Program-made: the position numbers and the translations under genes | Origin: Patescibacteria group bacterium | GTDB lineage: Bacteria > Patescibacteriota > JABMPQ01 > JAQVVF01 | Direction of reading: 5' to 3' | NCBI GenBank assembly: GCA_041662665.1 | Contig: JBAZSC010000002.1 | Coordinates: 5,735 to 69,734, forward strand | Length of the DNA: 64,000 nucleotides | In this document: positions 2,504 through 64,000 of the stretch, piece by piece | Numbering within the stretch: the first letter of the stretch is position 1 | How the letters are laid out: the number at the start of each line of letters is the position of its first letter | Notes under the pieces: generated by a model | The model's input: the letters and a program-made list of their open reading frames with translations, nothing else | Database searches by the model: none | Told to the model about the DNA's origin: nothing

Positions 2504-2553
2504 ATCTAAAAAATTATGCCTAAAAAATTAATTATTTTAAAATTATTTGCAAT

Positions 2554-3129: not shown

Positions 3130-3169
3130 AAAAATATTTTAAACCCAATCTTCTTTATAATATGTATGA

Positions 3170-3460: not shown

Positions 3461-3475
3461 ATTAATTAATTTTTT

Positions 3476-3955
3476 TTAATTCAACCTCCAAACCGCAAAA
3501 TTCAATATTGTAGCAAAAGAAACCCACAGTAAATATGGAATCAAAATCAAACCTGCTTTTTTATCAATTTTATAAAATAAATAGATATTATAAACAATCA
3601 ACAGCCACATAATCACAATATCAATTAAGCCTAAAATTGGACTTCGCAAACCAAAAAACAAAACAGACCAAATTGCATTTATTACTAATTGAATTATAAA
3701 AATATAAAAAGCGAATAAAACATTTTTATTTTTCAATCCCTTTTGCCAGATCCAATACAATGCAATTGCCATCAAAAAATAAAGTAAAGTCCAAGCTGGC
3801 CCAAATAACCAATTTGGCGGACTAAAAAATGGCTTGTTCAAATTAACATACCAATCCTTAATTGCTGAAATTGTAAAAAAACTTCCAATTATTCCAGCGC
3901 CTTCGCAGATAATTAATGCAATGATAAAACGAAAAATGTTTGGTTTTTGTTTCAT
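3476..3955 (-). CDS. tspO: TspO/MBR family tryptophan-rich sensory protein
   Basis: Five TM helices. TspO signature 'WYVNLNKPFFSPPNWLFGPAWTLLYFLMAIALYWIW'. Confidence 0.8.
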   Translation of the reverse strand: MKQKPNIFRFIIALIICEGAGIIGSFFTISAIKDWYVNLNKPFFSPPNWLFGPAWTLLYFLMAIALYWIWQKGLKNKNVLFAFYIFIIQLVINAIWSVLFFGLRSPILGLIDIVIMWLLIVYNIYLFYKIDKKAGLILIPYLLWVSFATILNFAVWRLN

Positions 3956-4847: not shown

Positions 4848-5585
4848 TTATTCACTTGAAAAAGGAGTGCAATTCGATCTAAGATTTACAATCTTTTCCA
4901 CTAAATCTTTTTTATCAATATCTGTTTTTCTTTTATCATCAGCCCAAATAAAAACAACCCACCGATCAATTTTATCATATCCACTAGCAGAAACTAATGA
5001 CCTAAATTCCATTCTGTATTTTTTCTGATCTAAATAAACTTCAAAAGAAACTGTACAAAAATGATTTTTTCCTCTGCAAACAACTTCAACATGTTTATTA
5101 TAATAGGCAAAACATCTATAGCGCACTAAAGAAAGTTCTGACCTCACAAAATTTCTTGTATCTTCATTTACCTCTTTATCTTTATCCAACATCACTCTAA
5201 TCCAATTTATTTTTATTTTTCGTTTCAAAACTTTTTTGTCGGAAACAATTTCATCATTTGTTTCTATCACTCTAAACTTATTGCGTTCTACATAAGGTAC
5301 GCTTAGCAATGAAGGATTAATATGTTCAGTTTCATCTTCAGTCTTTCGATAATTTGTTTTTTCAACAATGACAACTTCTTTTTCCGACCAATTAATCCCT
5401 AATCCAAGAATTAGAAATATGATTGTTAAAATAACAAAGCTTAAAAATTCTATTCTTTTTCTCATCCATAAAAAAACAAACCTATCTTTAATTTGCGCTT
5501 TCTTGCCTTTTATTAATTCCGCCATAATAGGCCTAAAACTATTTACAACAACTTTAACAAAGCTAATTTGCCTATTTAACCACAT
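4848..5585 (-). CDS. hypothetical membrane-anchored protein
   Basis: Hydrophobic N-terminal segment 'FLSFVILTIIFLILGLGI'. Internal Met starts are possible. Confidence 0.45.
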   Translation of the reverse strand: MWLNRQISFVKVVVNSFRPIMAELIKGKKAQIKDRFVFLWMRKRIEFLSFVILTIIFLILGLGINWSEKEVVIVEKTNYRKTEDETEHINPSLLSVPYVERNKFRVIETNDEIVSDKKVLKRKIKINWIRVMLDKDKEVNEDTRNFVRSELSLVRYRCFAYYNKHVEVVCRGKNHFCTVSFEVYLDQKKYRMEFRSLVSASGYDKIDRWVVFIWADDKRKTDIDKKDLVEKIVNLRSNCTPFSSE

Positions 5586-5778
5586 CTTGTCCCTCCTTTT
5601 TCAAAGAACGATATTTATATTTAAAAAAATTTGAAATTTATATTTATTATAATTTTATTTAACAACAAAATCAACGAAAGCGAAACGAAAATTCGAAAAA
5701 AGTATTCGCTTATATTCGCAAAAGCATTAGAGTGAGGCCAAAAAAAAGAAGCCATAACAGCTTCAATACAAAGAACGC

Positions 5779-5973
5779 TTAACCTCTGATTTTCAAAAAA
5801 TATTCCATCTTATCTCTTGGCCTCATGCGAGTTGGACGAAACTTTCGTTGAGTTTTTGATTCAAACGGAACATCATTTCGTCTTTCTTTCATCAAGCAAA
5901 CATCGGAATTTTCTGAAATCGGCTCAAGAATATGAAAGAAAAAAATCAACAAAACATCATCTGCGCTCAACAT
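5779..5973 (-). CDS. small protein, third gene of the GC-rich CDCQ cassette
   Basis: SD 'GAGGAGG' lies 7 nt upstream of the ATG at 5973. It overlaps the upstream gene's stop by 7 nt. It contains an 'SENSDVCLM' segment. Confidence 0.5.
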   Translation of the reverse strand: MLSADDVLLIFFFHILEPISENSDVCLMKERRNDVPFESKTQRKFRPTRMRPRDKMEYFLKIRG

Positions 5974-6336: not shown

Positions 6337-6684
6337 TCAAGCCTCCTTTGAACCCAATCTCAACAAAAAAGGAAAGCTATTAGGAGCAAATTCTTTTGGA
6401 AATTCATCTTCTCTTCGAAACCAAACCACAAATCCCCTTCCATTAATTCTCCTTGAAACACCTTGCGTGCACAATTTCCATTGTTCAGACAAATATTCAT
6501 TTTCCAAACTCAAACAGATAATTTGACAATCACATCTCACTCCAATTTCCATCAAAAATTCAATCACCCTATTGGTCATCAAAGAATGTTCCAATGCAAT
6601 CTCTCTAGCCAGAACTAACCCATGCTTGCCATTATGACAATATTTGCCTCTAGAAACCAGCTCAACGAATTCTCCGAACTCCAT
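6337..6684 (-). CDS. small Cys-rich protein with an 'RCDCQII' motif; first gene of the cassette
   Basis: The track ORF is 6337..6762. The start at 6684 (MEFGEF) is preferred because it has the SD 'GGAGGGAAAGGAA'. The leader is conserved with that of the 62265 gene. Confidence 0.55.
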   Translation of the reverse strand: MEFGEFVELVSRGKYCHNGKHGLVLAREIALEHSLMTNRVIEFLMEIGVRCDCQIICLSLENEYLSEQWKLCTQGVSRRINGRGFVVWFRREDEFPKEFAPNSFPFLLRLGSKEA

Positions 6685-7742: not shown

Positions 7743-7867
7743 AAATATAATTTACTTTAGTAAAGTGATTTACTTAAATAAAGTATAGCAAAATAATAAT
7801 TGCTGTCAAGAGATTTTCAAATAAACAAAAAAGAGCCTTTCGACTCTTTTAATTTTAATTCAGATTA

Positions 7868-8347
7868 TTATATACCTTTTTCTTTTTCAGAATAAAGATA
7901 ATCATAATCTATTTTTTTATATTCAAACAATTCATCATTATTGAAAAATCTGAATACTTCTTTTTCGGCATTTTCAGGACTGTCAGATGCATGAACAATA
8001 TTGCTTGATCCAGATATGCATAAATCACCTCTTATACTGCCAGCATCAGCTTCATAACCTTTAGTTGGACCAACTAATAAACGAACAGCTGAAATCGCAT
8101 TATAGCCTTCCAAAACTGCTGCAACACAAGGCGCACTTTTCATAAAACCCTTTAAGTCATTAAAAAATGGTTTATCTTTATGATGCGCATAATGTTCATC
8201 CAATAATACATCGCTTAATTGCATCATTTTCAAAGCTGTAATTTTTAATCCTTTTTTTTCAAAACGAGAAATAACCTCGCCTAAAAGATTTCTCTGCAAA
8301 CCATCTGGCTTAATTATAACTAATGTTCTTTCAATTTTATCTGGCAT
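7868..8347 (-). CDS. ndk: nucleoside diphosphate kinase
   Basis: 'ERTLVIIKPDG...', 'NIVHASDS', 'REI..FF'. Confidence 0.85.
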   Translation of the reverse strand: MPDKIERTLVIIKPDGLQRNLLGEVISRFEKKGLKITALKMMQLSDVLLDEHYAHHKDKPFFNDLKGFMKSAPCVAAVLEGYNAISAVRLLVGPTKGYEADAGSIRGDLCISGSSNIVHASDSPENAEKEVFRFFNNDELFEYKKIDYDYLYSEKEKGI

Positions 8348-23294: not shown

Positions 23295-23326
23295 AATAAA
23301 AAAAGCTACCACCAAAGCAATAGCTT
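23295..23326 (-). terminator. Rho-independent terminator of the 23325-23831 gene
   Basis: 'agctaccaccaaagcaatagct' hairpin overlapping the stop codon, with a T-run on the minus strand. Confidence 0.6.
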
Positions 23327-23831
23327 AAACTCCAATCAAAGGTACTTGTTCATCATTTATCGAAAGATCTTTTCCGCTAATAATCAAAGTCCTACCGTCT
23401 ACAACAACTGAAACAGTAATACAACCGTAGCTCTGATCAATACTTAGATTCGAAGAAAAACCATATTCTTTTTCAATCTTTTTCTTAAATTTTCGGAAAC
23501 GATCTTTTTCATTTTTGATTTTTTCACGTAAACTCGAATTCACTATTCTTAAAGTAATGATCTCCTTATTCATTCTTTTACTTCGACCTTTTACTAAAAT
23601 ACAGTATGGGTTTAGTAGAATAATCTTATCTGTATATGTAACACTAAAATATGAACCTGAATCTGTACGCATAATAACACTGCCACTTATACTTCCATAA
23701 GAAGCATCCTTGATTACACGCGCTTTTTCAAGACCAGATGGGCAATTAACACCACCTCTAATTTCCCATTCACCAGTGCTTAAAAACTCAATAAATTGTT
23801 TAGCGTTCAATCTTTCCTCGCCCTTCTCCAT
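23325..23831 (-). CDS. unknown-function protein, paralog of 23936-24488 ('GEWEIRGG' family)
   Basis: Strong SD 'AAGGAGGGAGAGGAAG'. Shares its N-terminal motif and overall architecture with the neighbouring gene. Confidence 0.65.
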   Translation of the reverse strand: MEKGEERLNAKQFIEFLSTGEWEIRGGVNCPSGLEKARVIKDASYGSISGSVIMRTDSGSYFSVTYTDKIILLNPYCILVKGRSKRMNKEIITLRIVNSSLREKIKNEKDRFRKFKKKIEKEYGFSSNLSIDQSYGCITVSVVVDGRTLIISGKDLSINDEQVPLIGV

Positions 23832-23909: not shown

Positions 23910-23937
23910 ATAAAAAAACTGTCACAAAGTAACAGTT
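23910..23937 (-). terminator. Rho-independent terminator of the 23936-24488 gene
   Basis: 'aactgt...acagtt' hairpin plus T-run on the minus strand. Confidence 0.5.
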
Positions 23938-24488
23938 AACAAAGATCGATTTTTGGCATCATTCTACCATTCAAATACAAACGTCCTCTGAAAAACTCAA
24001 TTCTCAAGCTCTTATCGCCACAACGAATCGTTACTTTCTGCTCATCATCGACATCAATACTTGTCAAAACCGAACCAATAAGATCATTCGAAATTCCAAC
24101 CACTTGTTTGCGTAAAGCATAACGACGCTGATTCTTTGCTCTACGCTTTCTTTTTTCATCAACTTCCTTTACTACTTGCTGCGATTTCTTATCCAATTCC
24201 AGATTCCGAATCTTCATAATTGCAACGGAACCACGACGTACTGTCACTGCACAATCCTTTATCATAAAGATATCATCTCTAACCGTAATGAGATAATTTT
24301 TACACATATCATCATTAAACATACGAACTCCAGCACCAATCTGAGTTTCTTCAAAAAAAAGACGAGACAATGTAATAGGTCTTGATTCACCTAAATAGAA
24401 AGTGCCACCTACCAACGACCACCCACCCATCCTTAATAGCTCAACAAATACCTTTAAATCCAACGATTTCTCCGTCATTGCCTTTTCC
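23936..24488 (-). CDS. unknown-function protein, paralog of 23325-23831 ('GGWSLVGG')
   Basis: Start set at MTEKSLDL (24488) with SD 'AAAGGAGGAAAAGG'. The track ORF extends to 24550. Confidence 0.65.
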
Positions 24489-39908: not shown

Positions 39909-40637
39909 TTATTTAACAATCTGCCTCGCCCTTTCAAGCTCCTCGGGTCTATTTATTCCCATTGTATGCTCAAAATCGTCAGTGATAACAGTATCTAATT
40001 TCAATCCCTTTTTATTCATAATTTCAATCAAATCAGTCAAATAATATTCTTTTTGAACATTATTATTGCTAATTAAATCTAAATTTTCCAATAATGCTTT
40101 AGCCTTAAAACAATATACTCCGGTATTTATTTCCTTAATTTTTAATTGCTCTTCCGTTGCATCTTTTTTCTCAACAATTCTTAAAACATTGTTACTCTCA
40201 TCTCGCACAATTCTGCCATATTCTAATGGATCTTTTAAATTTACGCTTAAAATACAACCATCTAAATCTCTTCCTTCACATTTTGTAACTAAAGAGTTTA
40301 ACATTTCCAAAGTCAAAAAAGGTGCATCACCAGGAGCAATTAGAACATATCCATCGAAATCTTTTATTTTTTCTTTTGCCATCATTACCGCATGTCCAGT
40401 TCCTAATTGTTCTTTTTGTTCAACATATTCTACTCTATCTTTTAAGTAATCTTTAATTAAATCTCCTCTAAATCCAATTACCAAAATGATTCTGTCCGCT
40501 CCCAAATCTTCCATTGTTTTAACTTGATACTCTATCATTGGCTTGTCTCCAATCATAAGCATTACTTTTGGCCTATCAGTACAATTCAATCTTGTTCCTT
40601 TTCCAGCTGCTAAAATCAAAGATGTTATGTTTTTCAT
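39909..40637 (-). CDS. sugar-phosphate nucleotidyltransferase (GlmU N-terminal-like)
   Basis: 'LILAAGKGTRL' G-x-G-T-R motif. 242 aa, with no acetyltransferase repeat domain. Confidence 0.65.
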   Translation of the reverse strand: MKNITSLILAAGKGTRLNCTDRPKVMLMIGDKPMIEYQVKTMEDLGADRIILVIGFRGDLIKDYLKDRVEYVEQKEQLGTGHAVMMAKEKIKDFDGYVLIAPGDAPFLTLEMLNSLVTKCEGRDLDGCILSVNLKDPLEYGRIVRDESNNVLRIVEKKDATEEQLKIKEINTGVYCFKAKALLENLDLISNNNVQKEYYLTDLIEIMNKKGLKLDTVITDDFEHTMGINRPEELERARQIVK

Positions 40638-40675
40638 AGAACTTTATAACTTTAAAAACTTTATAAACTTTATAA

Positions 40676-41329
40676 CTAAAGTATACACTTAACAATATTT
40701 GTCGCTTGATAAAGACCTTTTACAGTAAAATTATTTAATTCTGCCTTACTTTCAGAATATTTGCCTCCTGGTCTTTCAATCTTAATCGCAATAATATATG
40801 AAAAACCTCTTTTTATATAATCAATATTTTCTGGTACATCCTCTATGATTGCAATTTTTTTATCTCTGTTTTCATTAATCAGATCTTTCAAAATATCCTT
40901 TTTCAAACCACCTTCTCCTTCTGTCAACAAAACTTTTGTAAAAAAACCATTTATCTTACAATTATCAATTTTTGGTTGTTGAAATCTTTTTACTCCTAAT
41001 GATACCAAAAATAATTCACAATCATCTTTTACGCTTTCCAAAAAAGAAATCACATCTTCATACAAATAATTTTTTGAATTAGCAACTAGGCCATTGACTT
41101 CTGTCATCAAACTTTTTATATCTGTAATTTCGCCTTCCAACAATCTAACATGCAAAGCCGGATCATACGGTCTTTTTAATTTTTTTCTAATATAATTATA
41201 AGTCTGCTCATACCTATCAGAAGTAATTCCATAACGCAAAAAAATAGTCTTCAAATGTCTTTTGAAGAGCTCGGTATTAAATATCGTATGATCAAAATCT
41301 AATATAACTATTTTATCTTTTCTTAACAT
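40676..41329 (-). CDS. HAD-superfamily hydrolase-like protein
   Basis: Motif I 'ILDFDHT'. Confidence 0.5.
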   Translation of the reverse strand: MLRKDKIVILDFDHTIFNTELFKRHLKTIFLRYGITSDRYEQTYNYIRKKLKRPYDPALHVRLLEGEITDIKSLMTEVNGLVANSKNYLYEDVISFLESVKDDCELFLVSLGVKRFQQPKIDNCKINGFFTKVLLTEGEGGLKKDILKDLINENRDKKIAIIEDVPENIDYIKRGFSYIIAIKIERPGGKYSESKAELNNFTVKGLYQATNIVKCIL

Positions 41330-41338
41330 AATTTAAAA

Positions 41339-41395
41339 TCGCTGATTTAACGCTGATTTCGAACGCTGATAAACGCTGAATGACAACGCCTGATT
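41339..41395. repeat. CGCTGAT heptad array (~11-nt phasing, 4-5 copies), locus 1
   Basis: It contains the 21-mer 'acgctgatttcgaacgctgat', which recurs as a reverse complement at 55911-55932. Confidence 0.6.
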
Positions 41396-42383
41396 ACACC
41401 AATTCAAATAATATTTTTGCCAATTTTTTAGAATCATGATGAATCAAACTCCTTATCAAAACATCAGATTTCTTTTTCTTATAAGCTTTTCCTAATAAAT
41501 CAGCACCAATATAATTAATTTTTTGAGTATTTTTCTGATTCAAAAATTCAACAAAATTTCCTTTTATTTCCGTATGTTGTTTAAGTATTTCTAAACTAGG
41601 CTTGGTTTTATTATATATGACATAATCCAAAATTCCAAGCCCCAAATATTGTTCCAAAACATCTACATGGTCCTGAACACTAAAATTGTTCGTCTGTCCA
41701 AACTTAGTCATTATGTTGCTGACATAAACAATTTTGGCTCTAGATGCCTTTAGGGCATTAGCAATACCAGAAACACATAAACATGCAACAACAGAAGTAT
41801 ATAAATCTCCAGGTCCAATTACAATCAAATTTGCCTCTTTGATAGCCTTTAAAACACTAGGATTTGCTTTAATCTTTGGTTCAATCCAAGCCTTTTTTAT
41901 CTTCAAATTGCCATCAAAACCAATTACTTCATCAATATTGGTTTCTGATTTTATGACTTGTCCATTTTCAAGTTCTACGCATAGATCAGCTCTTTTCAAA
42001 GCTACAGGCATTATCTTATCTTTTATTTTTAATTCTTTGCATAATTCTTCAATCGCCTTTTCAATATCACCAGATTTTTCTTGTAAATTCGCAATAATAA
42101 TATTTCCCAAATTATGACCCTCAAATTCACCTTTTTCAAAACGAAAATCTAAAATATCTTTCCACGTTTTATTTTCCGGCATTAAAGCTAACAGCATTTT
42201 TCTTAAATCACCCATCGGCAATAAATCCTTATTTTCTTTCAATAATCTGCCAGTTGATCCTCCACTATCAGTCACTGGATAAACACTAGTTAATTGAACA
42301 TTTTTGTGCACTTTTAACCCACCCAAAACAACACTTGCTCCAGTTCCACCACCAATATAGATAATTTTCTTGACTTTTTGCAT
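41394..42383 (-). CDS. YvcK/CofD-like (UPF0052, gluconeogenesis factor family) protein
   Basis: 'IIYIGGGTGASVVLGGLK...VTDSGGSTGRL'. Confidence 0.7.
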   Translation of the reverse strand: MQKVKKIIYIGGGTGASVVLGGLKVHKNVQLTSVYPVTDSGGSTGRLLKENKDLLPMGDLRKMLLALMPENKTWKDILDFRFEKGEFEGHNLGNIIIANLQEKSGDIEKAIEELCKELKIKDKIMPVALKRADLCVELENGQVIKSETNIDEVIGFDGNLKIKKAWIEPKIKANPSVLKAIKEANLIVIGPGDLYTSVVACLCVSGIANALKASRAKIVYVSNIMTKFGQTNNFSVQDHVDVLEQYLGLGILDYVIYNKTKPSLEILKQHTEIKGNFVEFLNQKNTQKINYIGADLLGKAYKKKKSDVLIRSLIHHDSKKLAKILFELV

Positions 42384-42444
42384 GAATAATAATAAACTTT
42401 AAAATCAATTAAATTCCTCGCCACAAAAGGAAGGAGGAAAAACG

Positions 42445-42693
42445 ATGAGGCAGACATTTGAAAAGCTAATGGATAAAATAGCAGAAAGCCTTTCAAGAAT
42501 CTTCGGTCTCATTCTCGTACTTTACGCTATTTTGTTCTTCATTACTTCAATTTTTGTAACAGTAGTTCTTCGCGCCCCAATCCAAACAGAACTGATCTTC
42601 ATGAATTTCACCACCCCATTCATCATTCTTGAAGGCATCGGCTTTCTATGGATCGGAAACGCTCTCAAAACAAAAACTCTATGTCCTTTCTAA
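42445..42693 (+). CDS. small membrane protein, hypothetical
   Basis: SD 'AAGGAAGGAGGAAAAACG'; two TM helices; followed by a terminator. Confidence 0.55.
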   Translation: MRQTFEKLMDKIAESLSRIFGLILVLYAILFFITSIFVTVVLRAPIQTELIFMNFTTPFIILEGIGFLWIGNALKTKTLCPF

Positions 42694-42713
42694 CCTCGCC
42701 CGAGGTTTTTTTA
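42693..42713 (+). terminator. Rho-independent terminator
   Basis: 'acctcg-cc-cgaggt' followed by 'ttttttt'. Confidence 0.65.
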
Positions 42714-42754
42714 ATTCGAAAATAATTAGAATATAATTCGAATAAAAATTAGAA

Positions 42755-44572
42755 TTATTCAACAGTCACACTCTTTGCCAAATTCCTCGGCTTATCCACA
42801 TCCAATCCTTTGATTTCTGCAATATGATAAGCCAGCAATTGCATTGGCACAACAGTTAACAATGGCTCAAGCAATTCTATAGTTTCTGGAATATAAATCA
42901 CGTCATCTGCATATTTTTCAATGTCAGTATTTCTCTCTGTCGTAATAGCAATAATTTTGCCTTTCCTTGCTCTTATTTCTTGCATATTACTAATTGTTTT
43001 GTCATAAACACTATCTTTTGGAACTATGAAAAAACATGGAAAATTTTCATCAATCAAGGCAATTGCGCCATGTTTCATTTCTCCAGCAGAATAGCCTTCA
43101 GCATGAATATAAGAAATTTCTTTTAACTTCAAAGCTCCTTCCAATGCCATAGGATAATTAAATCTTCTACCTAAATACAAGAAATTTTTGTAATCACGAT
43201 ATTTTTCTGCTAAATTTTTTATTTTGTCATTTTGTTCTAAAATTTTCTTTATCTTTTCTGGAATTTTCTTTATCTCTTCTGCAATATTTTTTCCTTCCAT
43301 GAAAGACAAATTTTTAAGTCTACCAAATTCTAAAGCCAAGATTGATAGAACAGTAGTTTGCGCCAAAAAAGCTTTTGTTGAAGCAACGCCAATTTCTGGT
43401 CCAGCATGAACAAAAACTCCGCCATCAGTTTCACGAGCAATCGTTGATCCAACAACATTAGAAATTCCCAAAACTTTAATACCCTTTCTCTGTATTTCTC
43501 GCATTGCTGCAATTGTGTCAGCTGTTTCACCAGATTGCGATATTACAAAAACAAGAGTATCTTTATCTAATAGAATTCTTTTATAACGCAATTCTGATGC
43601 GCATTCGACTTCACAAGGAATTGACGCGCATTCTTCAATCATGTATTTTCCAACCATTCCAGCATGCAAAGCAGTACCGCAAGCAATAAAAACAATTCTT
43701 TTGACTCTTAACATTTCTTCAATTGACATATTTAAACCGCCAAGATGAGCCAAACCTTCCGAAGATACAACTCGACCAGCTGAAGCATTTTCAACTACTT
43801 TTGGCTGTTCAAAAATTTCTTTCATCATAAAATGTTTAAAATCTTTCTTTTCAGCTAAATCCTGTTGCCAATCAATTTCATGAACTTCTGAATTAACTTT
43901 TTTATCATCAATTGTAATAGTATAAAAACCTTCTTTTGTAATTTCCACAATCTCATTTTCTTCAATATAAACCACTTTTTTCGTATAAGGAATCAAAGCT
44001 GTCGCATCAGACGCAAAATAATTTTCTCCCTCACCAACTCCCACGACTAATGGACTACCATGACGAGCTGCAACAATCCTATCTGGTTCAAGTGAAGAAA
44101 TAACAACAATACCATATGTTCCATCAATGCAAAGCAAAGCTTTTCTCACTGCTTCTTTCAAATTTCCTTCATAATATTTTTCAATCAAATGGCTTAAAAC
44201 TTCAGTATCAGTTTCTGATCTAAATTTATGACCTTCTTTAATCAATTGCTCTTTTAATTTGGCAAAATTCTCAATAATCCCATTATGAATTACTGCAATT
44301 TTTCCTTCACAATCCAAATGAGGATGAGCATTCTGATCTGTTACTCCTCCATGAGTTGCCCATCTTGTATGACCCATTCCAATTGTTCCAGCAAGATTAG
44401 TCATCTCTAAATTCTGGCCAATTCTGCCAACGCTTTTCACAAAATTAATTTTTCCATCACTGATAGTCGCCAAACCCCAAGAATCATATCCACGATATTC
44501 TAATTTTTTCAAACCATCAACTAAAATCGGTGATGCTTTTTTATTTCCGATATAAGCTATTATTCCGCACAT
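42755..44572 (-). CDS. glmS: glutamine--fructose-6-phosphate aminotransferase
   Basis: 'MCGIIAYIG' Ntn amidotransferase domain and two SIS domains. Confidence 0.9.
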   Translation of the reverse strand: MCGIIAYIGNKKASPILVDGLKKLEYRGYDSWGLATISDGKINFVKSVGRIGQNLEMTNLAGTIGMGHTRWATHGGVTDQNAHPHLDCEGKIAVIHNGIIENFAKLKEQLIKEGHKFRSETDTEVLSHLIEKYYEGNLKEAVRKALLCIDGTYGIVVISSLEPDRIVAARHGSPLVVGVGEGENYFASDATALIPYTKKVVYIEENEIVEITKEGFYTITIDDKKVNSEVHEIDWQQDLAEKKDFKHFMMKEIFEQPKVVENASAGRVVSSEGLAHLGGLNMSIEEMLRVKRIVFIACGTALHAGMVGKYMIEECASIPCEVECASELRYKRILLDKDTLVFVISQSGETADTIAAMREIQRKGIKVLGISNVVGSTIARETDGGVFVHAGPEIGVASTKAFLAQTTVLSILALEFGRLKNLSFMEGKNIAEEIKKIPEKIKKILEQNDKIKNLAEKYRDYKNFLYLGRRFNYPMALEGALKLKEISYIHAEGYSAGEMKHGAIALIDENFPCFFIVPKDSVYDKTISNMQEIRARKGKIIAITTERNTDIEKYADDVIYIPETIELLEPLLTVVPMQLLAYHIAEIKGLDVDKPRNLAKSVTVE

Positions 44573-44688
44573 GTTTTTAAAATTAAAAAGTAAAAATTAA
44601 AAAGTAAAAAAAACTATAGTTATATCAATTTAACATATTTTTTTTGCTATCTCAAGACATAAAAAAACCAGTAAAAACTGGTAATCAC

Positions 44689-44949
44689 TTAATGTACACG
44701 AATCTCCTCGTTTAATTTTGTAGCTCGTGAAATCAACTGAGCCAAAATATTTCGGAAATCATTCAATTGTGCACGATCAGACAAAACTATTTTCACCAAC
44801 TTTGCTTTTCTACATGTATGTTGATCAATTGCTGCAATCATTTTATCAAGCAAAGGATGTTGCTCGCCAAGTTGTTCACGTACAATTTCTAACAATGAAT
44901 GAGCTAAAGTATAATCAAATGATACTTCAATCTTATCTTTTTCAAACAT
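44689..44949 (-). CDS. small protein, third gene of the GC-rich overlapping cassette
   Basis: Its start overlaps the upstream gene by 8 nt. Elevated GC. Confidence 0.5.
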   Translation of the reverse strand: MFEKDKIEVSFDYTLAHSLLEIVREQLGEQHPLLDKMIAAIDQHTCRKAKLVKIVLSDRAQLNDFRNILAQLISRATKLNEEIRVH

Positions 44950-45259
44950 TTTTCCTTCCCTCCTTGGCTAGGGAATCGGCATGCAAACGAATTCCAGCAT
45001 CTAAAATAGTCATTTCTTTGTGCAAAATCTTCCATGCCTCTCTCAACCTCAAAAATTGCACATCACCTGCCGGATTATCCGCAAAAAACAAAGTTGCTTC
45101 TTTCAATTCATCATTTCCACAATGAATCATCGCCTCTTCCAAACTTTCTGTCAAAACCAAAGAAACTTGATCTTCTGCTTCAAACAAACAATCATGCAAA
45201 GCAACCAACAAATGTCTTCCGCATCTCAATCTTCGCATTCCATCCATTTCTTCGCTCAT
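44942..45259 (-). CDS. small protein, second gene of the cassette
   Basis: Its start overlaps the upstream gene's stop by 1 nt, consistent with translational coupling. Confidence 0.5.
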   Translation of the reverse strand: MSEEMDGMRRLRCGRHLLVALHDCLFEAEDQVSLVLTESLEEAMIHCGNDELKEATLFFADNPAGDVQFLRLREAWKILHKEMTILDAGIRLHADSLAKEGRKNV

Positions 45260-45564
45260 TACTGTCCTCCTCCCTCTTGCTCAATAAAAACAGATTTTGA
45301 AAAATTATCTACCTCACTAGCCAATTGCACAACATCTTTCATTAAACTAAAGGTCGCCCTCTGAAATTTCGCTAATTGCTTTCGACCATCTTCATCATCC
45401 GGAAATTGTAACAACACTACTTCTTCTTTTGCTTCTTCTATATAATCAGACAAGAAATTGTATAGAAAACTATCCCAAAGTTGACCCCCTCTAAAAACTT
45501 CTCGCAAAGCATACAACACGCTAAGCTTGCAAGAAACTGTCAAATTATGCTTCTGGCTTGGCAT
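45259..45564 (-). CDS. small protein, first gene of the cassette
   Basis: SD 'AAAAGGAGGAGAGAA' immediately upstream. Confidence 0.55.
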   Translation of the reverse strand: MPSQKHNLTVSCKLSVLYALREVFRGGQLWDSFLYNFLSDYIEEAKEEVVLLQFPDDEDGRKQLAKFQRATFSLMKDVVQLASEVDNFSKSVFIEQEGGGQ

Positions 45565-45643
45565 TCTTTCTCTCCTCCTTTTCTCGTTGTTAAAGTACGA
45601 TATCTAATCTCCGTAATTTCCGAATTTCCAAATATCCGAATAT

Positions 45644-46453
45644 TTATTTCTTTATAACTATCATAACTTTTTTTCCATTCAACATCGAACTTGGATCATA
45701 ATCATGAATCGCATTATACAAATTATCAAAAGTATATCTAAATTTAAATCCTTGCCAAATTCCTGGATCATTTGTAATAAATCCATTTTCATCAAATCCA
45801 ACAATTACCAAATTATGGTAAACAGGACCAGGTGCCGTAAAATGAGGATTAGCAAGCATTTGTCCAGCAGTTGGCGCTAAAACAACATTTCCTTGCGCTA
45901 ATTCTTTCTTTATATCTTCAACTGTAATATCATATTTAGCTTCAACATTCTTATAACCATAATACTCTTTTGCTAATCTGACAATATCTTCTGCCTTCAA
46001 ATCAAAATGTCCACCCCAATTTTGTACTTGCCAATCTACCATATCCAAAATTTCCTGATTAGCTACATCTTTAGGAATTTCTAAATTCAAATATTCTCCT
46101 TTCAAATAATGATCAATCATCATCAAAGATGCTTCCTCACAAGCTTCCTGCCAAGGCTCTGCCCAATTCTGATATGGCGCTTGGCATGTAAATGGAGCAT
46201 CTAGATCACAACTCGCAGGCATTACAAATTCTGGTTTCTTTTTTATATCTTTTTCGTCATTTTGATTCTCTTCAGCTACAATATTCTCTGAACTAATATT
46301 TTGTTCAGATTGATTTTCTATATTTAGCGACTCATTATATTCATTTATTTCAGATATTTCTTGAGGTTGAAACATTTTTACCAAAAACAAATCAATAGCT
46401 ACAAGAATAGCCAACATTAATATTACAATTCCAATTTTTGATACTTTTCGCAT
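45644..46453 (-). CDS. C39-like (papain-fold) cysteine peptidase family protein, membrane-anchored
   Basis: N-terminal TM segment. 'CQAPYQNWAEPWQEACEEASLMM' resembles the Peptidase_C39_2 Cys region. His/Asn candidates lie downstream. Confidence 0.5.
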   Translation of the reverse strand: MRKVSKIGIVILMLAILVAIDLFLVKMFQPQEISEINEYNESLNIENQSEQNISSENIVAEENQNDEKDIKKKPEFVMPASCDLDAPFTCQAPYQNWAEPWQEACEEASLMMIDHYLKGEYLNLEIPKDVANQEILDMVDWQVQNWGGHFDLKAEDIVRLAKEYYGYKNVEAKYDITVEDIKKELAQGNVVLAPTAGQMLANPHFTAPGPVYHNLVIVGFDENGFITNDPGIWQGFKFRYTFDNLYNAIHDYDPSSMLNGKKVMIVIKK

Positions 46454-46561
46454 AAATTTGACTTGACGAACTATTCTAATATCTTAATATGAATTAAACA
46501 AGGCTTTTTCTCGTACCCTAGCAAAAGCCCGCTTTCGCCATAGTTCAATGGCAAGCGGACA

Positions 46562-47272
46562 ATGGAGGAAAAAGTGATCATCCAACCAAAAGTAAGATTA
46601 TATAGGCCATCAATTTATGATATCATTGCAATCACAGGAGCAAGTGGATCAGGCAAGGGAGAGGTTGCAAAAAAAATTATTGCTGCTGTTGGCGAAGAGT
46701 ACGTTGGGCATAACGAATTAGATAATTTTTATCTTGATCGCAGCGATATGCCTCCAGAAGAAAGAGAGAAGCTGGATTTTGATGATCCTAATAATTCTCT
46801 TGATTGGTTCGAAGTTATTCATTTTGTAATGTGCTTAAAGGAAGGAAAACCTGTTGAAATGCCTCTATACGATTTCGACAGCCATACTAGAGTTACCAGG
46901 CCAGAGCCACTCATCATCACGCCAAAACGCTTTAATCTTATTGACAGCCATATGGCTCTTTGGCATCCAAAACTTAGAACACTTTACCGCAAAAAACTAT
47001 TTGTTGATCCAACACTAGATATTTGCGGTTTCAGAAGACAAGATAGAGATACTAGACCCAAAGAAGAAGGTGGTCGTGGCAGAACGAATGAATCAGTTCG
47101 CAAACAATGGCCAAAAGTTAGTCGTGCCTTCAAAATTCACTTCGAACCAACCAAAGAATTTGCTAACATAATTATTCCCGAAGGCGGCAACAACGAAGAG
47201 GGAATTGATTTTATTATCGGTTGGATGAAATATCAAATCATGATCGAAGCTCAACAAACTCAAACAGCCTAA
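46562..47272 (+). CDS. uridine kinase / PRK-family nucleoside kinase-like protein
   Basis: P-loop 'ITGASGSGKG'. 'RRQDRDTRPKEEGGRGRTNESV' resembles the Udk 'RRxxRDxxERGR' region. GC-rich. Possible GTG start at 46574. Confidence 0.55.
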   Translation: MEEKVIIQPKVRLYRPSIYDIIAITGASGSGKGEVAKKIIAAVGEEYVGHNELDNFYLDRSDMPPEEREKLDFDDPNNSLDWFEVIHFVMCLKEGKPVEMPLYDFDSHTRVTRPEPLIITPKRFNLIDSHMALWHPKLRTLYRKKLFVDPTLDICGFRRQDRDTRPKEEGGRGRTNESVRKQWPKVSRAFKIHFEPTKEFANIIIPEGGNNEEGIDFIIGWMKYQIMIEAQQTQTA

Positions 47273-47395: not shown

Positions 47396-50300
47396 TTATA
47401 CAACTATATTAATCAATCTTCCCTTTACAAAAATCATTTTCTTAATCTTTTTTCCAACAATATATTTCATAATCTTTTCTCTCTTTTGCACAAGTTCACT
47501 TGCCTTCTCTTCAGAAATATTTGTATCAACTTCCATAAAATCTCTCACTTTGCCATTGATCTGAATAATCATTTTAACTTTTTCTTCTTTCATTTTACTT
47601 TCATCAAATAATGGCCAAGATGCTTTAAAAACACTTTCCTTATTCCCAAGCGTCTCCCACATTTCTTCACAAAAATGCGGAGCAAAAGGAGACAAAATAA
47701 TTAACAAAGTCTCTATATCAATTTTAGAAATTTTATCTTTTTGCTTATCTAACAAATTCAAAAATTCCATTGATGATGCAATGATCGTATTATAATCCAA
47801 TTCCTCAACATCATGAGTTGCTTTTTTGATTAATTTATTTCTCTGAATAACAAACACATCATCCTGAGTACCTAAGGAACTAAGTACCTGAGAAACTAAA
47901 AAGAAAAGTCTACCAAAAAAACGCTCAATTCCAACAACACCTTCATCTCTAAAATCGCCACCTTGTTTTAATGGTCCGATAAACATCAAATAAGTCCTCA
48001 AAACATCAGCGCCATATTTTTCAATATATAGATCAGGATTTACAACGTTACCTTTTGATTTTGACATCTTGGCACCATCTTTAATAATCAAACCATGCGC
48101 TCGAAATTTTTTAAAAGGCTCTTCAAAATCAATCATCCCTAAATCATGTAAAACCATTGTCACAAATCTTGTATAAAGTAAATGAAGTACAGCATGCTCA
48201 TGTCCGCCAATATACATATCAACTGGCAACCATTTTTTTGTAATCTCTTTATCAAAAGGCTGATCTTTTATATCAACACTTGGATATCTCAAAAAATACC
48301 AAGATGAATCTAAGAATGTATCTGAGACATCAGTTTCTCTTTTTGCCTCTCCTCCACATTTTGGACATTTCGTATTAACAAATTCCAAATTTCGAGCAAG
48401 AGGCGATCGATCAGTTCCGTCAGGCAAATAATCATCAGTCTTTGGCAACATTACTGGCAAATCTTCTTCTGGAACTGGAATTATACCGCTATTTATAGAA
48501 TCAGGAAATTCAAAAAGTATTTCCGGCAATTCTTTAATACCAGCAGTCTCATTGAAATGTCCTTTATTCTTAAATACACTAACTTTAGCATTTAAGACTT
48601 CATAGTCCTTTTTAACTTCTAAAGGAATATATGGATCATTATCAGACAAGTAAATTACTTTTTCTTTAACTAATTTAGACAGTTCATCTAATCCGATATT
48701 CAGTTCATTGAATTCCTTAATGATTGCTAATGCCTCGTCATCACAACCAGCATTCTTCAAATTATTCCAATTTAACTCACCTTGACTATTCCCAGTAGGT
48801 GCAACTAAAATCAATTTTTCAATATTTAACTTATTTTTCAATGCAAACTGGCAAGCAGCTGGAGCACCCAAACTATGGCCAATTAAATATATCTGGTCAT
48901 CTTTTTTAATCGGTAATTTTTCCAGCGCAGAAATCCATTCATTCATCTTCGGATGCTCATTATTTGGCAAATCAGGAATTAAAACTTCATAGCCTCTATT
49001 TTCCATTTCTTGTTTAAACCAAGGGAACCAATTTTCTTTAGAATGACCATAAATTCCGTGCACTAAAATAATTTTTGGCTTTCTCTTAGCACAACTTTCA
49101 CAATAAACGATTGGAATTGGCGGTCCCCAAAATCTTTGTCTAGAAATACACCAATCGCGTAATTTATAATTAACCACTCTCTGACCCCAACTTTTTTTTT
49201 CTAAGTAGTCCATTATTTTTTTAGTCGCATCATGAATATCTAAACCATTCAAAAAATCAGAATTAATCATTTTTCCTTCTTTTTCTTGAACCTGTTTTGC
49301 TTCTATAATTTCTGAAGTATCATTATCTTTTCCAATAACAACTCGGATAATCGGCAATTTAAATTTCTTTGCAAATTCAAAATCTCTGATATCATGACCA
49401 GGCACACCGACAACTGCACCAGTACCTACATTTCCCAAAACAAAATCAGATACCCAAATCGGCATTTTCTTACCTGTCAAATTATTAATACAATAAGCTC
49501 CAGTAAAAACGCCTGTTTTTTCTCGTCCCTCTTCAATTCTGTCTTGTTCACTTTTTGCTAATGATTTCTTAACATAATCTTCAACTTCTTTTTTATGCTC
49601 ATCAGTAACCATCTCATTCAAAACTTTACTTTCTGGCGCCAATACTACAAATGTCGCACCAAAATTAGTATCTGGTCGCGTTGTAAAACAAATTATTTTC
49701 TTGTCACTGTCAACAATTTTGTATTCAATTTCTATGCCTTCTGACTTTCCAATCCAATTTTTCTGCGCTAATTTTGTCTTTTCTGTCCAATCAATTTTAT
49801 CAATATTTTTTAATAATTTTTCAGCATAATCAGTAATCTTGAAAAACCATTGGCTCATATCTTTTTTTACAACTTCTGTTTTACATCTTTCACATAAACC
49901 AGCTTCAACTTGCTCATCAGACAAAACAGTCATACAAGAAGGACACCAATTCACAGCTGCTTTCTTTTTGTATGCCAATCCTCTTTTGTACATCTGCAAA
50001 AATAGCCATTGCGTCCATTTATAATAATTTGGATCATAGGTTTCCAAAGTCTTTGACCAATCATAAGCATTACCTATCATGTGTAATTGTTCATAAAATC
50101 TTTTCTGAGTTTTTTCTGCCATCACTGCTGGATGAATCTTATTTTTAATTGCAAAATTTTCTGAATGGATACCAAAACCATCCAATCCAATTGGTTCAAA
50201 AACATCATTGCCCTTTAATCTTTGATAGCGTCCATAAATGTCTGATCCAGTAAAAGCGTACATATTTCCAACATGCAAACCTTCAGCAGATGGATATGGA

Positions 50301-50416
50301 AACATCATCAAATTATAAAAAGGTTTGGCAGATTTTTTAACATCAACCTGATAAAGCTTTTCTTCATCCCATTTTTTCTGCCACTTTTTTTCTATTTTTT
50401 TAAAATCATATTTCAT
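47396..50416 (-). CDS. leuS: leucyl-tRNA synthetase carrying an internal YdeN/RBBP9-like alpha/beta serine-hydrolase domain insertion
   Basis: 'HVGNM' (HIGH variant), CP1 editing motifs 'TTRPDT' and 'GTGAVVGVPGHDIRD', 'ISRQRFWGPPIP', 'KMSKS', anticodon-binding and C-terminal domains. About 190 aa are inserted between 'PIPIVYC' and 'IPVPEEDLPV'. Confidence 0.9.
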   Translation of the reverse strand: MKYDFKKIEKKWQKKWDEEKLYQVDVKKSAKPFYNLMMFPYPSAEGLHVGNMYAFTGSDIYGRYQRLKGNDVFEPIGLDGFGIHSENFAIKNKIHPAVMAEKTQKRFYEQLHMIGNAYDWSKTLETYDPNYYKWTQWLFLQMYKRGLAYKKKAAVNWCPSCMTVLSDEQVEAGLCERCKTEVVKKDMSQWFFKITDYAEKLLKNIDKIDWTEKTKLAQKNWIGKSEGIEIEYKIVDSDKKIICFTTRPDTNFGATFVVLAPESKVLNEMVTDEHKKEVEDYVKKSLAKSEQDRIEEGREKTGVFTGAYCINNLTGKKMPIWVSDFVLGNVGTGAVVGVPGHDIRDFEFAKKFKLPIIRVVIGKDNDTSEIIEAKQVQEKEGKMINSDFLNGLDIHDATKKIMDYLEKKSWGQRVVNYKLRDWCISRQRFWGPPIPIVYCESCAKRKPKIILVHGIYGHSKENWFPWFKQEMENRGYEVLIPDLPNNEHPKMNEWISALEKLPIKKDDQIYLIGHSLGAPAACQFALKNKLNIEKLILVAPTGNSQGELNWNNLKNAGCDDEALAIIKEFNELNIGLDELSKLVKEKVIYLSDNDPYIPLEVKKDYEVLNAKVSVFKNKGHFNETAGIKELPEILFEFPDSINSGIIPVPEEDLPVMLPKTDDYLPDGTDRSPLARNLEFVNTKCPKCGGEAKRETDVSDTFLDSSWYFLRYPSVDIKDQPFDKEITKKWLPVDMYIGGHEHAVLHLLYTRFVTMVLHDLGMIDFEEPFKKFRAHGLIIKDGAKMSKSKGNVVNPDLYIEKYGADVLRTYLMFIGPLKQGGDFRDEGVVGIERFFGRLFFLVSQVLSSLGTQDDVFVIQRNKLIKKATHDVEELDYNTIIASSMEFLNLLDKQKDKISKIDIETLLIILSPFAPHFCEEMWETLGNKESVFKASWPLFDESKMKEEKVKMIIQINGKVRDFMEVDTNISEEKASELVQKREKIMKYIVGKKIKKMIFVKGRLINIVV
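48509..49081 (-). other. inserted serine-hydrolase (YdeN/PF06821-like) domain within leuS
   Basis: 'KIILVHGIYGHSKENWFPWFK', nucleophile elbow 'LIGHSLGA', 'LSDNDPYIP', 'NKGHFNETAG'. It is in frame and has no intein-like C...HN boundaries. Confidence 0.7.
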
Positions 50417-60903: not shown

Positions 60904-62265
60904 TTACGAAAAGTTCTTCAAAATTCCACGAGCTGCAATCACTCCAGTTGCAGCTGCTCCAACAATATTTCCAGAAACACCAGCACCATCACCAGCCATA
61001 AAAAGTCCAGGCATTTTTGTCATCAAATTTACATCAGTACCAATTCTTGATGACCTAGGTTTCAATTCTGGTGCATACAAAAGAGTTGAACCATCATTAA
61101 TACCAGGCATTACTCTTTCCAAAATTTCCAATCCCTCCAATAGATTTGTCACAATCCTTCCTGACAATGCCATTGCAATATCACCCGGCGTTACATCCTC
61201 CAAAGTTGGACGAACATTGCTCTTTCTAATTCTATCCCACGTACTTCTCCTACCTGCTCTCAAATCAGCCAATCTTTGCAAAACTGGTCTTCCTCCACCC
61301 AAAGTCGTCGCAACTTTCGCAATAGCTTGAGCATAAAGCGTTGTATTCTCTATTGGCGCATCCAATTGCACTTCTGTCAAAAAAGCAAAGTTTGAATTGC
61401 CAGAATCATGCTTTGAACTTGAATGACCATTGACACCTACAAAACCTTCATCATAATTCTCTGTTGCAACCTTACCTCCAGGACAAGGACAAAAAGTCCT
61501 GACCAAATCATCATGAGTAGGAGTTTGGATTAAAAAGATTGCTTCATACATTACATCTGCATATTTTCTCATAATTACTTCTGGAAATTCAACTCGAACA
61601 CCAATCAACACCTTTTCATAGCTCAAACCAAGATTAAAATGCTTAGCCAATCTTTGTAGCCAAGTTGCTCCAGGACGACCAGGTACCAACAAAACATTAT
61701 CTGCCAAAATAATATCTCCACCACTTATTACTACACCCTTGCATTTTCCTTCAACTTCATGAAGTCTCTCAATAAAACAACAAGTGCGAAAAACAACTCC
61801 GTGTGCAATCAGATGATCCTGAAAACTTTGCATTACTTTAGGCAATTTGTCCGAACCAACATGTCGAACTCTTCTTGGAACCAACCTCATTCCCTGAATC
61901 AATGCTTCATCAACCAATCTTCTCACTACATCTTGATCTTCATCTTTTGGAAAATAATTTTCTGGAGCACCATGTTTTGTAAATGACCTATCAACGCCAT
62001 CAACAACTCTCTGGTATTCTGACAATCCAACTAAACTCAACATTGTCTCATGACTCAAAACAGGCGTCACATGAAGCTTTCCATCAGAAAAAGTCCCTGA
62101 TCCACCTACGCCATTCATAATGTCTTTCTTTGTTCTATCTTGAACCAGCTTACCTTTCTCAACAATACAAACCTTCAAATCAGGCCTCATCGAAACCAAC
62201 TCATACGCTGCAAACAAACCAGCCGGCCCAGCACCTACGATCACAACATCGAACTTGTCTGGCAT
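60904..62265 (-). CDS. FAD-dependent oxidoreductase (COG2509-like)
   Basis: 'DVVIVGAGPAGLFAAYEL' dinucleotide-binding motif. GC-rich. SD 'AGGGAGGAAGGAG'. Confidence 0.7.
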   Translation of the reverse strand: MPDKFDVVIVGAGPAGLFAAYELVSMRPDLKVCIVEKGKLVQDRTKKDIMNGVGGSGTFSDGKLHVTPVLSHETMLSLVGLSEYQRVVDGVDRSFTKHGAPENYFPKDEDQDVVRRLVDEALIQGMRLVPRRVRHVGSDKLPKVMQSFQDHLIAHGVVFRTCCFIERLHEVEGKCKGVVISGGDIILADNVLLVPGRPGATWLQRLAKHFNLGLSYEKVLIGVRVEFPEVIMRKYADVMYEAIFLIQTPTHDDLVRTFCPCPGGKVATENYDEGFVGVNGHSSSKHDSGNSNFAFLTEVQLDAPIENTTLYAQAIAKVATTLGGGRPVLQRLADLRAGRRSTWDRIRKSNVRPTLEDVTPGDIAMALSGRIVTNLLEGLEILERVMPGINDGSTLLYAPELKPRSSRIGTDVNLMTKMPGLFMAGDGAGVSGNIVGAAATGVIAARGILKNFS

Positions 62266-62387
62266 CTCCTTCCTCCCTTGTCCGCCGAAGTTCCGCAGAA
62301 CGAAGGCGGAATTTGTCCACCTAGCTCCGCAGAGCGAAGGCGAACTCGTTGTCCACCTAGCTAAACGAAAGCAAAAACGAACATTGT
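62266..62387. repeat. GC-rich leader with two tandem ~34-nt repeats and a CCGCC...GGCGG hairpin module
   Basis: 'ccgcagaRcgaaggcgRa' x2 and 'tgtccacctagct' x2, alternating. Confidence 0.7.

Positions 62388-64000
<1,613 letters not shown>

Follow-up and report, generated by a model that had tools for sequence, protein, structure and literature searches.

Classical C39 domains cleave the double-glycine leaders of tandemly encoded small precursors. Exported peptidases of the papain superfamily may be followed directly downstream by ~100-amino-acid (aa) signal-less inhibitors, and in SpeB-Spi, staphopain-staphostatin and the Bacteroides C10 protease-inhibitor loci the two genes are co-transcribed, the inhibitors being mutually unrelated and 11-26% identical (PMC3462683), so that independent invention and fast divergence are normal for such a guard role. 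A C39 peptidase toxin, StbD-CT, has also been described together with its small cytoplasmic immunity protein StbI, a five-stranded beta-sheet (bioRxiv 10.64898/2026.05.07.723447). In this study, we analysed a 64,000-nucleotide (nt) stretch of DNA from a Patescibacteria group bacterium (assembly GCA_041662665.1, contig JBAZSC010000002.1, positions 5,735 to 69,734; hereafter the window), in which three small overlapping genes, here called the cassette, lie directly downstream of a gene for a C39-like cysteine peptidase. To judge from profile comparison, the three products are diverged tandem paralogues of one previously unclassified family of ~90-105 aa. In related genomes the copy number and content of this slot change by gain, loss and replacement, that is, by birth-and-death turnover. 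We read the locus, with a rough probability of 0.4, as an array of small proteins, restricted to a narrow taxon and changing in copy number by gain and loss, that is carried on the peptidase transcript. The features on which the argument rests are as follows, where ORF stands for open reading frame and SD for Shine-Dalgarno sequence.

45644-46453, minus strand: membrane-anchored C39-like cysteine peptidase (Pfam PF13529), 269 aa
45565-45643, minus strand: leader from the peptidase stop codon to ORF1, 79 nt, carrying the SD and short direct repeats ATTCGGAWAT
45582-45568, minus strand: SD motif AAAAGGAGGAGAGAA, heading ORF1
45259-45564, minus strand: ORF1 ('type 1'), 101 aa
44942-45259, minus strand: ORF2 ('type 2'), 105 aa, its start overlapping the ORF1 stop by 1 nt
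44689-44949, minus strand: ORF3 ('type 3'), 86 aa, its start overlapping the ORF2 stop by 8 nt
44657-44682, minus strand: intrinsic terminator ACCAGTTTTTACTGGT with a T-run (hairpin 44682-44667), directly 3' of ORF3

A preliminary description of this DNA, made from the letters alone, had reported the three overlapping minus-strand ORFs, their coupling in an operon and a strong SD ahead of the first of them, and all three statements hold. The junctions read TAATG between ORF1 and ORF2 (1 nt) and ATGTTTGA between ORF2 and ORF3 (8 nt), and the interval from the SD to the hairpin and T-run is completely tiled by the three ORFs. The terminator after ORF3 is the sole terminator-like site in 44400-46700 and closes the peptidase-cassette unit ahead of the glmS promoter region. 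At 31.3% GC the window is AT-rich, and almost every gene is on the minus strand. The label 'GC-rich', with a figure of ~48% GC, was a misreading, since the measured value for the cassette region is 36.6% (ORF1 37%, ORF2 40%, ORF3 33%), a modest rise that falls mostly on third codon positions. A 'GC-rich foreign island' was likewise rejected as stated, the rise being ~5 points and persisting across diverged lineages.

Direct BLASTP among the three proteins gave no match, and their paralogy was seen only once relatives had been found and profiles compared. The type 1 profile then aligned with that of type 3 over 68 columns (hhalign, 93.7% probability, E 1.9e-7), and the type 2 profile matched both weakly, in register over the common motif. 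This family-wide motif is a central strand-turn-helix, 'hxhxF-x-[ND]D-x-x-G-[RK]-x-x-L', and all members share in addition an N-terminal 'hxhxC/F' strand followed by a helix. At the DNA level the junction sequence GGAGGAGAC-GAGAATGGCTGA, comprising SD, ATG and the overlapping stop, is repeated between copies.

The family is extremely rare. No match came from a word-indexed search in which the three proteins were concatenated, and an exhaustive HMMER search of 1.84 billion representative proteins returned, beyond the query, only P0004, which is ORF1-like and 38% identical, and P0005 and P0006, which are ORF3-like (53% and 39% identical over the matched stretches, 49% and 35% over the full alignment). 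Only three more, P0007, P0008 and P0009, came from two profile searches of 5.8 billion proteins. All family protein clusters are singletons, so there are no close variants, and three further ORF1-bearing contigs are 100% identical to the window and carry no divergence information. In total, ~10 distinct members are found among ~15 billion proteins, all relatives being contigs of metagenomes or metagenome-assembled genomes, and the family alignment is shallow. The earlier statement that the three ORFs belong to no recognisable family was borne out, in that none of them matches Pfam, NCBIfam, PHROGs or PADLOC, and no match to these collections recurs across the members. The full family alignment was too diverse for pattern scans. 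Scans of viral contigs with the subfamilies revealed no relatives, and a phage origin is without support. The family hidden Markov model (HMM) found no further copy within the 64-kb window, and a metagenome scan anchored on the peptidase yielded only distant peptidases without the cassette. The family is confined to one narrow Patescibacteria clade.

Every member with known context occupies the slot between the peptidase gene and glmS, on the same strand. The contents of this slot in the window and in the related loci (L numbers) are as follows.

Window: types 1, 2 and 3
L016: leader as in the window, followed directly by types 2 and 3, in this order
L009-L011: type 2 followed by type 3
L012-L015: a 174-aa protein (divergent family domain plus a Cys-rich CxxC...CxxC tail), then a type-3-like gene
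L004: slot empty, a 163-nt spacer, gene order identical
L008: 504-bp fragment, context not seen, with at least three copies joined by 8-nt overlaps

Copy numbers across the four relatives with known context and the window are thus 0, 2, 2, 2 and 3. Synteny in related genomes had been proposed as a check, and homologous genes with the same SD-ATG-overlap junctions are open in four other lineages. ORF1 has a homologue on L008 (P0004, 38% identical), and none is present in L016, L009 or L012. Orthologues of ORF2 occur in L016 (59%) and L009 (57%), and homologues of ORF3 in L009 (49%), L012 (35%) and L016 (33%). Type 3 is always last in the array, and in three lineages type 2 precedes it, an order whose retention points to non-redundant subunits. 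In the window, L016, L009 and L012 the cassette is followed by the same hairpin, and in L004 the spacer contains a terminator-like hairpin and glmS promoter region that align with the window sequence after ORF3. Between peptidase gene and cassette there is no terminator in the window, L016 or L009, while L012 has a GC-rich hairpin there. The slot lies inside the 3' end of the peptidase transcription unit, and its content is dispensable, for L004 has no cassette and yet retains a peptidase that is 73% identical to that of the window over the full length, with the triad intact. Distant C39_2 genes (L005, L017 and L018) have unrelated neighbours and no cassette-like genes. We consider it highly probable that the cassette is a real paralogous array in a variable slot.

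Two features of the L012 locus may be noted here. Its first cassette gene (5428-5952, 174 aa) carries the family domain in frame with a 63-aa Cys-rich, zinc-ribbon-like CxxC...CxxC tail, and the two parts meet exactly at the conserved SD-ATG junction (…ACGGGAATGGCTGAAAAA…), which gives the appearance of two genes merged by a phase shift of 1 nt. On either side of the L012 slot (~5320-5345 and ~6390-6415), and after the L016 slot (~7860-7885), stand GC-rich palindromes (CCTGCCTGCCGGTAGGCAGG and variants), with none in the window; these may represent RNA hairpins or a small repetitive element of palindromic type.

Rates of evolution were estimated as the ratio of non-synonymous to synonymous divergence (dN/dS) by the Nei-Gojobori method, and the estimates are rough because the sequences are short and partly saturated. 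The values were 0.49 for ORF1 (against P0004), 0.45-0.59 for ORF2 and 0.33-0.84 for ORF3, compared with 0.11-0.24 for the peptidase, which is under clear purifying selection, and 0.12 for udk. The ratio stayed below 1 in all ten evaluable cassette pairs (0.33-0.84; one further pair had saturated synonymous divergence, dS), and position 2 was the least-changing codon position in 10 of the 10 pairs examined. The preliminary description had named a ratio of ~1 as the result that would speak against coding, and the observed values, relaxed as they are, do not refute it. On these estimates the cassette proteins are constrained, but weakly. Between the window and L016, nucleotide identity is 90% for the 5' end of glmS, 81% for the peptidase gene and 78-82% for the spacers, compared with 76% for ORF2 and 64% for ORF3, so that the cassette genes diverge faster than adjacent non-coding DNA.

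Such figures raise the question whether the genes are young or decaying, with little or no function, drifting near neutrality, with copies gained and lost by unequal crossing-over, and expressed only by virtue of their location in a transcribed region. The dN/dS values of up to 0.84, codon-position biases that are mostly non-significant, the faster divergence than that of the neighbouring spacers, the dispensability of the array in L004, the total of just ~10 sequences in 15 billion proteins and the L012 junction, where a frame change fuses one copy to the Cys-rich tail, all fit this explanation. We regard it as distinctly unlikely, given that all copies are open, with perfect SDs and exact overlaps, at a synonymous divergence of 0.5 to >1, that no evaluable pair reaches a ratio of 1, that the order of types is conserved, and that the predicted fold described below is confident and consistent; in addition, change faster than that of the spacer is better explained by diversifying selection or the sorting of paralogues than by drift alone.

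The comparison of L009 with L012 bears most directly on the relation between cassette and peptidase. Their flanks are 82-93% identical and their peptidases 91% identical in amino acids and 90% in nucleotides (dS 0.44). Yet no alignment is possible between the first cassette genes, and nucleotide identity between the last ones is 66% (dS ~2.0). The pattern is that expected if old paralogues are sorted or replaced within a variable slot, and does not fit a partner co-evolving with the conserved peptidase. The preliminary description had taken a peptidase with coupled small proteins as the architecture of processing, export or effector-immunity systems; this has found no support, since the L004 peptidase lacks the cassette altogether, and since in these two loci nearly the same peptidase is followed by different cassettes, without co-variation of the two.

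The upstream gene itself is what it had been said to be. The protein matches Pfam PF13529 (Peptidase_C39_2) with 48.8 bits (cut-off 24, E 1.5e-12), its residues 92-230 covering profile positions 3-142 of 143, and has an N-terminal hydrophobic anchor at residues ~7-27; the peptide singled out earlier as C39-like includes the catalytic Cys, C105. Residues C105, H213 and D229 are invariant in eight peptidase homologues and Q93 is conserved, and the profile of these homologues matches PDB 3ERV ('putative C39-like peptidase', E 3e-6), the Cys, His and Asp of the two falling in register (blocks aCEeAsllm/GCEVTSLAMM, HvlvivGfd/HCVVLIGYD and nDP/RDP), thus a relationship to a non-catalytic family, proposed as a possible refutation, was not found. 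PF13529 proteins are free-standing peptidases, unlike the transporter-fused C39 domains (PMC10318531), and the domain also acts as the lytic part of endolysins encoded by phages of Gram-positive hosts (PMC8223927). The window gene resembles these free-standing enzymes (3ERV and the endolysin domains) in its HMM match above the cut-off and in the register of triad and upstream Gln, a likeness that concerns the upstream gene only, and differs from them by its N-terminal signal anchor and low-complexity linker. It is a single-domain peptidase, consisting of anchor and C39_2 domain, without any delivery or polymorphic-toxin domain and without a recognisable propeptide. By predicted topology the catalytic domain faces outwards, and given the signal anchor the protein is probably inserted co-translationally.

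The gene order around it is of a housekeeping kind (leuS, udk, peptidase, slot, glmS). Downstream, at 39909-44572 on the minus strand, glmS is followed by genes for a CofD-family protein (329 aa), a HAD hydrolase and a nucleotidyltransferase, a cluster that is also present in L004 and L012 and looks like one for uridine diphosphate (UDP)-sugar or cell-envelope precursors; the position of the peptidase gene beside glmS and the CofD-family gene would make an envelope-related role plausible. No ATP-binding cassette (ABC) transporter or modification enzyme is encoded among the immediate neighbours (39.9-50.4 kb), and Rfam gave no RNA family at the locus, hence no glmS ribozyme.

The main rival to our reading is that the small proteins are a cytoplasmic guard or chaperone of this peptidase, comparable to the staphostatins (ScpB, SspC) or Spi, which would bind the enzyme in the cytoplasm, keep it from acting too early or help it to fold, and not be exported with it. 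The cassette is on the same strand, directly downstream, with no terminator between and a shared one behind, and it encodes small, soluble, signal-less proteins beside an exported or anchored peptidase with an intact triad. It would probably be co-transcribed with the peptidase gene, as the known inhibitors of ~100 aa are with theirs. The locus departs from these systems in having three paralogous subunits instead of one, which is unusual for an inhibitor, in a beta-alpha-alpha-beta-alpha fold (two strands and three helices) unlike the beta-barrel staphostatins and without any PDB sequence or fold match, and in an array that is dispensable in a close relative, L004, whose intact peptidase has no family member. 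A partner of a conserved surface should itself be conserved, whereas the cassettes of L009 and L012 are radically different beside peptidases that are 91% identical. The peptidase is signal-anchored and has no recognisable propeptide, and the family has no similarity to any part of it, unlike Spi, which resembles the SpeB propeptide; hhalign of the family against the peptidase profile gave a probability of 0.05%, so a Spi-like propeptide origin was rejected. On balance, such a guard role seems unlikely.

A second explanation makes the peptidase an antibacterial or anti-host effector and the paralogues an immunity array against it or against related incoming effectors. Fast-evolving tandem arrays of small proteins, variable in copy number and placed downstream of an effector, are typical of immunity genes, and both the StbD-CT/StbI precedent and the use of PF13529 as a phage endolysin lytic domain could be cited for it; like those of StbD-CT/StbI and polymorphic-toxin arrays, the small proteins here are cytoplasmic, rapidly diversifying and lie next to a C39-superfamily peptidase. 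We nevertheless find it improbable. The peptidase is conserved, sits in a housekeeping gene order and carries no delivery or polymorphic-toxin domain; its catalytic domain is predicted to lie outside, whereas the small proteins have no export signal and would stay in the cytoplasm; the StbI fold differs from that of the cassette; L004 would possess an 'effector' without 'immunity'; PADLOC gave no match; and there is no co-diversification, as the peptidase remains under purifying selection while the cassette turns over.

That the small proteins are substrates of the peptidase, namely bacteriocin-like precursors, or precursors like those of ribosomally synthesised and post-translationally modified peptides (RiPPs), with long leaders that are cleaved on export, is largely refuted. 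The locus does resemble classical C39 (PF03412) bacteriocin systems in that a C39-clan cysteine peptidase lies beside several small tandem genes; ORF1 contains Gly-Gly (FRGGQ, EGGGQ), and the first gene of L012 has a Cys-rich C-terminal extension. It differs from them in that the window enzyme is a single-domain, free-standing PF13529 protein that is not fused to a transporter and the small proteins have no conserved leader ending in GG, GA or GS. In P0004 the sequence reads FRHGQ, so that the Gly-Gly is not conserved; the GG/EE at the C-termini is the translated SD of the next gene; conservation covers a folded domain rather than a leader with a variable core; and neither an ABC transporter nor a modification enzyme is encoded by the immediate neighbours.

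The cassette is also distinguished by its expression signals and composition. In the window, near-perfect SDs precede all three cassette genes (3/3) and none of their neighbours; with start codons assigned crudely as the first Met, an SD was seen in 6 of 50 long window ORFs. Duplex energies are -11.6, -12.1 and -11.9 kcal/mol for ORF1 to ORF3, against a mean of -1.1 for the 50 long ORFs. Apart from signal peptidase I and a flavin adenine dinucleotide (FAD) oxidoreductase, the SD-led genes of the window (starts 605, 5585, 23831 and 24478, and the cassette) are orphan- or accessory-looking. GC content at third codon positions (GC3) is 0.32 in ORF1 and 0.35 in ORF2, compared with 0.208 +/- 0.038 for 38 long ORFs, and in every lineage the cassette (0.22-0.36) exceeds its flanks (0.19-0.24). 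The share of TTA among Leu codons is 17% in the cassette and 39% in the flanks of the window (p = 0.012), and 4% against 34% in L016 (p = 0.001). The cassette thus has its own translation and composition regime, which suggests either a separate origin or separate constraints; no donor was found.

Open frames of 132, 114 and 88 aa overlap the cassette on the plus strand (window 44727-45364), and similar stop-free antisense stretches are present in L016 and L009 and closed in L012. We took these antisense ORFs as by-products, given their lack of SDs, their failure to tile the region and their closure in L012; TTA avoidance does not fully account for them.

The first 32 nt of the leader (45612-45643) are identical between the window and L016 and the first 57 nt are 89% identical, compared with 81% for the peptidase coding sequence and a synonymous divergence of ~0.5-0.7 in the genes adjoining the leader. 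Within these 32 nt lie the direct repeats ATTCGGATAT, ATTCGGAAAT and TTACGGAGAT, and the stretch may represent a promoter or operator; the leaders of L009 and L012 have no repeats. The leader motif ATATYGYWCTTTRA was rejected as a genome-wide element, with 2 matches against 1.5 expected.

AlphaFold2, given an alignment of nine family sequences, predicted for ORF1 a beta-alpha-alpha-beta-long-helix arrangement (E7-13, H14-26, H33-44, E49-55, H58-98) with five concordant models, a predicted local distance difference test score (pLDDT) of 85 and a predicted template modelling score (pTM) of 0.69. In the model strand 1 pairs with strand 2 within one chain, not across a dimer, and the C-terminal helix extends over ~40 residues with a 3-4 hydrophobic spacing; the near-invariant positions of the family are a Gly and hydrophobic residues. 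A single-sequence model of ORF2 (pLDDT 63, all helical) was poor and not used. The small proteins had been described as alpha-helical and acidic, which is right as to acidity for ORF1 (isoelectric point, pI, 4.8) and ORF2 (pI 5.1), while ORF3 is neutral (pI 6.9) and the model contains two beta-strands besides its three helices; across the family the pI is 4.5-6.9, except for the 174-aa fusion P0008 at 8.0. No transmembrane segment or signal peptide is predicted in the small proteins. Foldseek gave no significant match, the best non-significant ones being KH-like proteins such as OOEP and Pcc1, and a sequence-profile search of the PDB returned only centrin (E 0.1-0.66). An EF-hand, tested as D-x-[DNS]-x-[DNS]-G-x-[ILV]-x-x-x-E, was rejected, as the family loop (e.g. 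P-D-D-E-D-G-R-K-Q-L-A-K) has no Asp at position 1, hydrophobic residue at position 8 or Glu at position 12. A WXG100-type substrate of a type VII secretion system (T7SS) was likewise rejected on account of the two confident beta-strands in the model and the absence of W-x-G from the family alignment (an FtsK-like ATPase was searched for at the locus only).

The predicted element order brings in a further candidate function, that of small nucleic-acid-binding regulators or antitoxin-like proteins, whose N-terminal beta-alpha-alpha would act as a ribbon-helix-helix (RHH) or minimal KH unit and which would regulate their own operon through the leader repeats. The beta-alpha-alpha start with a Gly or polar turn between the helices, the KH-like proteins among the best, non-significant fold matches, direct repeats in a leader more conserved than the genes, and the fusion of one member to a CxxC...CxxC tail agree with this, as do the small size, acidity and operon position that the proteins share with RHH antitoxins (ParD, CcdA) and minimal KH proteins, a resemblance at the level of fold only. 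However, no RHH, KH or helix-turn-helix model of Pfam or NCBIfam matches any of 11 members; the proteins are acidic to neutral and their strand residues not basic, so that the basic DNA-reading strand is missing; the strands pair within the molecule; there is no GXXG loop and no toxin partner, all cassette genes being of one family; and the L009 and L012 leaders are without repeats. This function is therefore very improbable.

We return to the reading of the cassette as a clade-restricted array carried on the peptidase transcript. Transcription of its genes would come from read-through of the peptidase gene, perhaps with a further start in the conserved leader, and the perfect SDs and overlapping stop and start codons would allow efficient translation in a fixed ratio. 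The repeated SD-ATG-stop junctions offer a substrate for unequal recombination, which probably drives the turnover, to judge from their repetition between copies. The products would be soluble, cytoplasmic and non-enzymatic, and their long C-terminal helices, with a heptad pattern, would probably join them in a hetero-oligomer whose action is to bind some other macromolecule; we give such a hetero-oligomeric binder an even chance. Being dispensable, and turning over independently of the conserved peptidase, the array is judged to be an autonomous accessory module that uses the peptidase transcript, although its functional independence from the peptidase is put forward only tentatively. The partner is more likely to be something variable, such as a phage, host or competitor factor, than the peptidase.

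Several observations weigh against this reading. All members except that of L008 adjoin this peptidase on the same strand, as functional partners would; one ancestral insertion may explain all occurrences, thus the linkage neither confirms nor excludes a role with the peptidase. Codon-position bias is significant in only one of 10 cassette pairs (p 0.03-0.7), compared with p of 1e-5 to 1e-8 for the peptidase, and part of the family may be drifting. Long antisense open frames are kept in three lineages. Hetero-oligomerisation is deduced solely from the coupling and the modelled helix pattern, and a conflict-type target is conjecture, no toxin, nuclease or mobile-element gene being present.

A more far-reaching version, which we hold to be rather unlikely, is that the array forms a clade-specific heteromeric complex without structural neighbour, kept under diversifying selection, with copies gained and lost, as a defence or counter-defence module against a variable external partner. 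Candidates for that partner are a phage protein, a host factor or an incoming toxin, the bacterium being ultra-small and probably episymbiotic. In a similar vein, the array may be a guard of several subunits, invented independently, for a C39-like peptidase that acts on the cell wall.

The evolutionary kind to which the cassette belongs, a clade-restricted family with tandem duplication at a variable slot, is a familiar one, and we class the locus by this mode of evolution and not by function; the family itself is new, being unclassified and without sequence or structural neighbour. The analysis corrects an attractive but unsupported reading of a peptidase with a processing or immunity function for its small neighbours, since adjacency within one clade cannot carry that inference. 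It also provides a compact case of gene turnover in reduced Patescibacteria genomes, where ~1 kb of content is replaced wholesale between flanks that are 82-93% identical, and the perfect SDs in a genome that hardly uses SDs raise the question of how such genes arise and are expressed. If the products bind a variable external partner or the peptidase, they would be a new small-protein module in a group of largely unknown biology, and if the defence reading is true, a class of small-protein module, for defence or counter-defence in Patescibacteria, that has not been seen before.

Some further observations were made elsewhere in the window. At 23325-23831 and 23936-24478 (minus strand) lie tandem paralogous hypothetical genes of 168 and 180 aa (BLASTP E 7e-5), each equipped with a promoter-like TTGAyT...TATACT of its own and a perfect SD, so that they form a second orphan tandem family with SDs. 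GC content is locally raised at 1-1000 (38%) and 61000-63000 (36-39%); one of these stretches holds the gene for a D-rich P-loop protein running off the window end, and the other an FAD oxidoreductase gene preceded by GC-rich direct repeats (…CGCCTTCGCTCTGCGGAGC…CGCCTTCGTTCTGCGGAAC…). In the window leucyl-tRNA synthetase (LeuRS; 47396-50416, minus strand, 1006 aa), an alpha/beta-hydrolase domain of 201 aa interrupts the chain at residue 443, between 'YCESC' and 'IPVPEEDLP'; this domain matches Pfam Ser_hydrolase/Abhydrolase_1 and has a GHSLG nucleophile elbow. The insert is absent from the LeuRS of L004 (2726-5143), L009 and L016 (805-822 aa), and the L012 enzyme (125-3577, 1150 aa) contains a hydrolase of similar kind elsewhere in the chain (residues 258 and 366) together with an unrelated 130-aa insert at the site used in the window. 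LeuRS looks like a hotspot for domain insertion in this clade.

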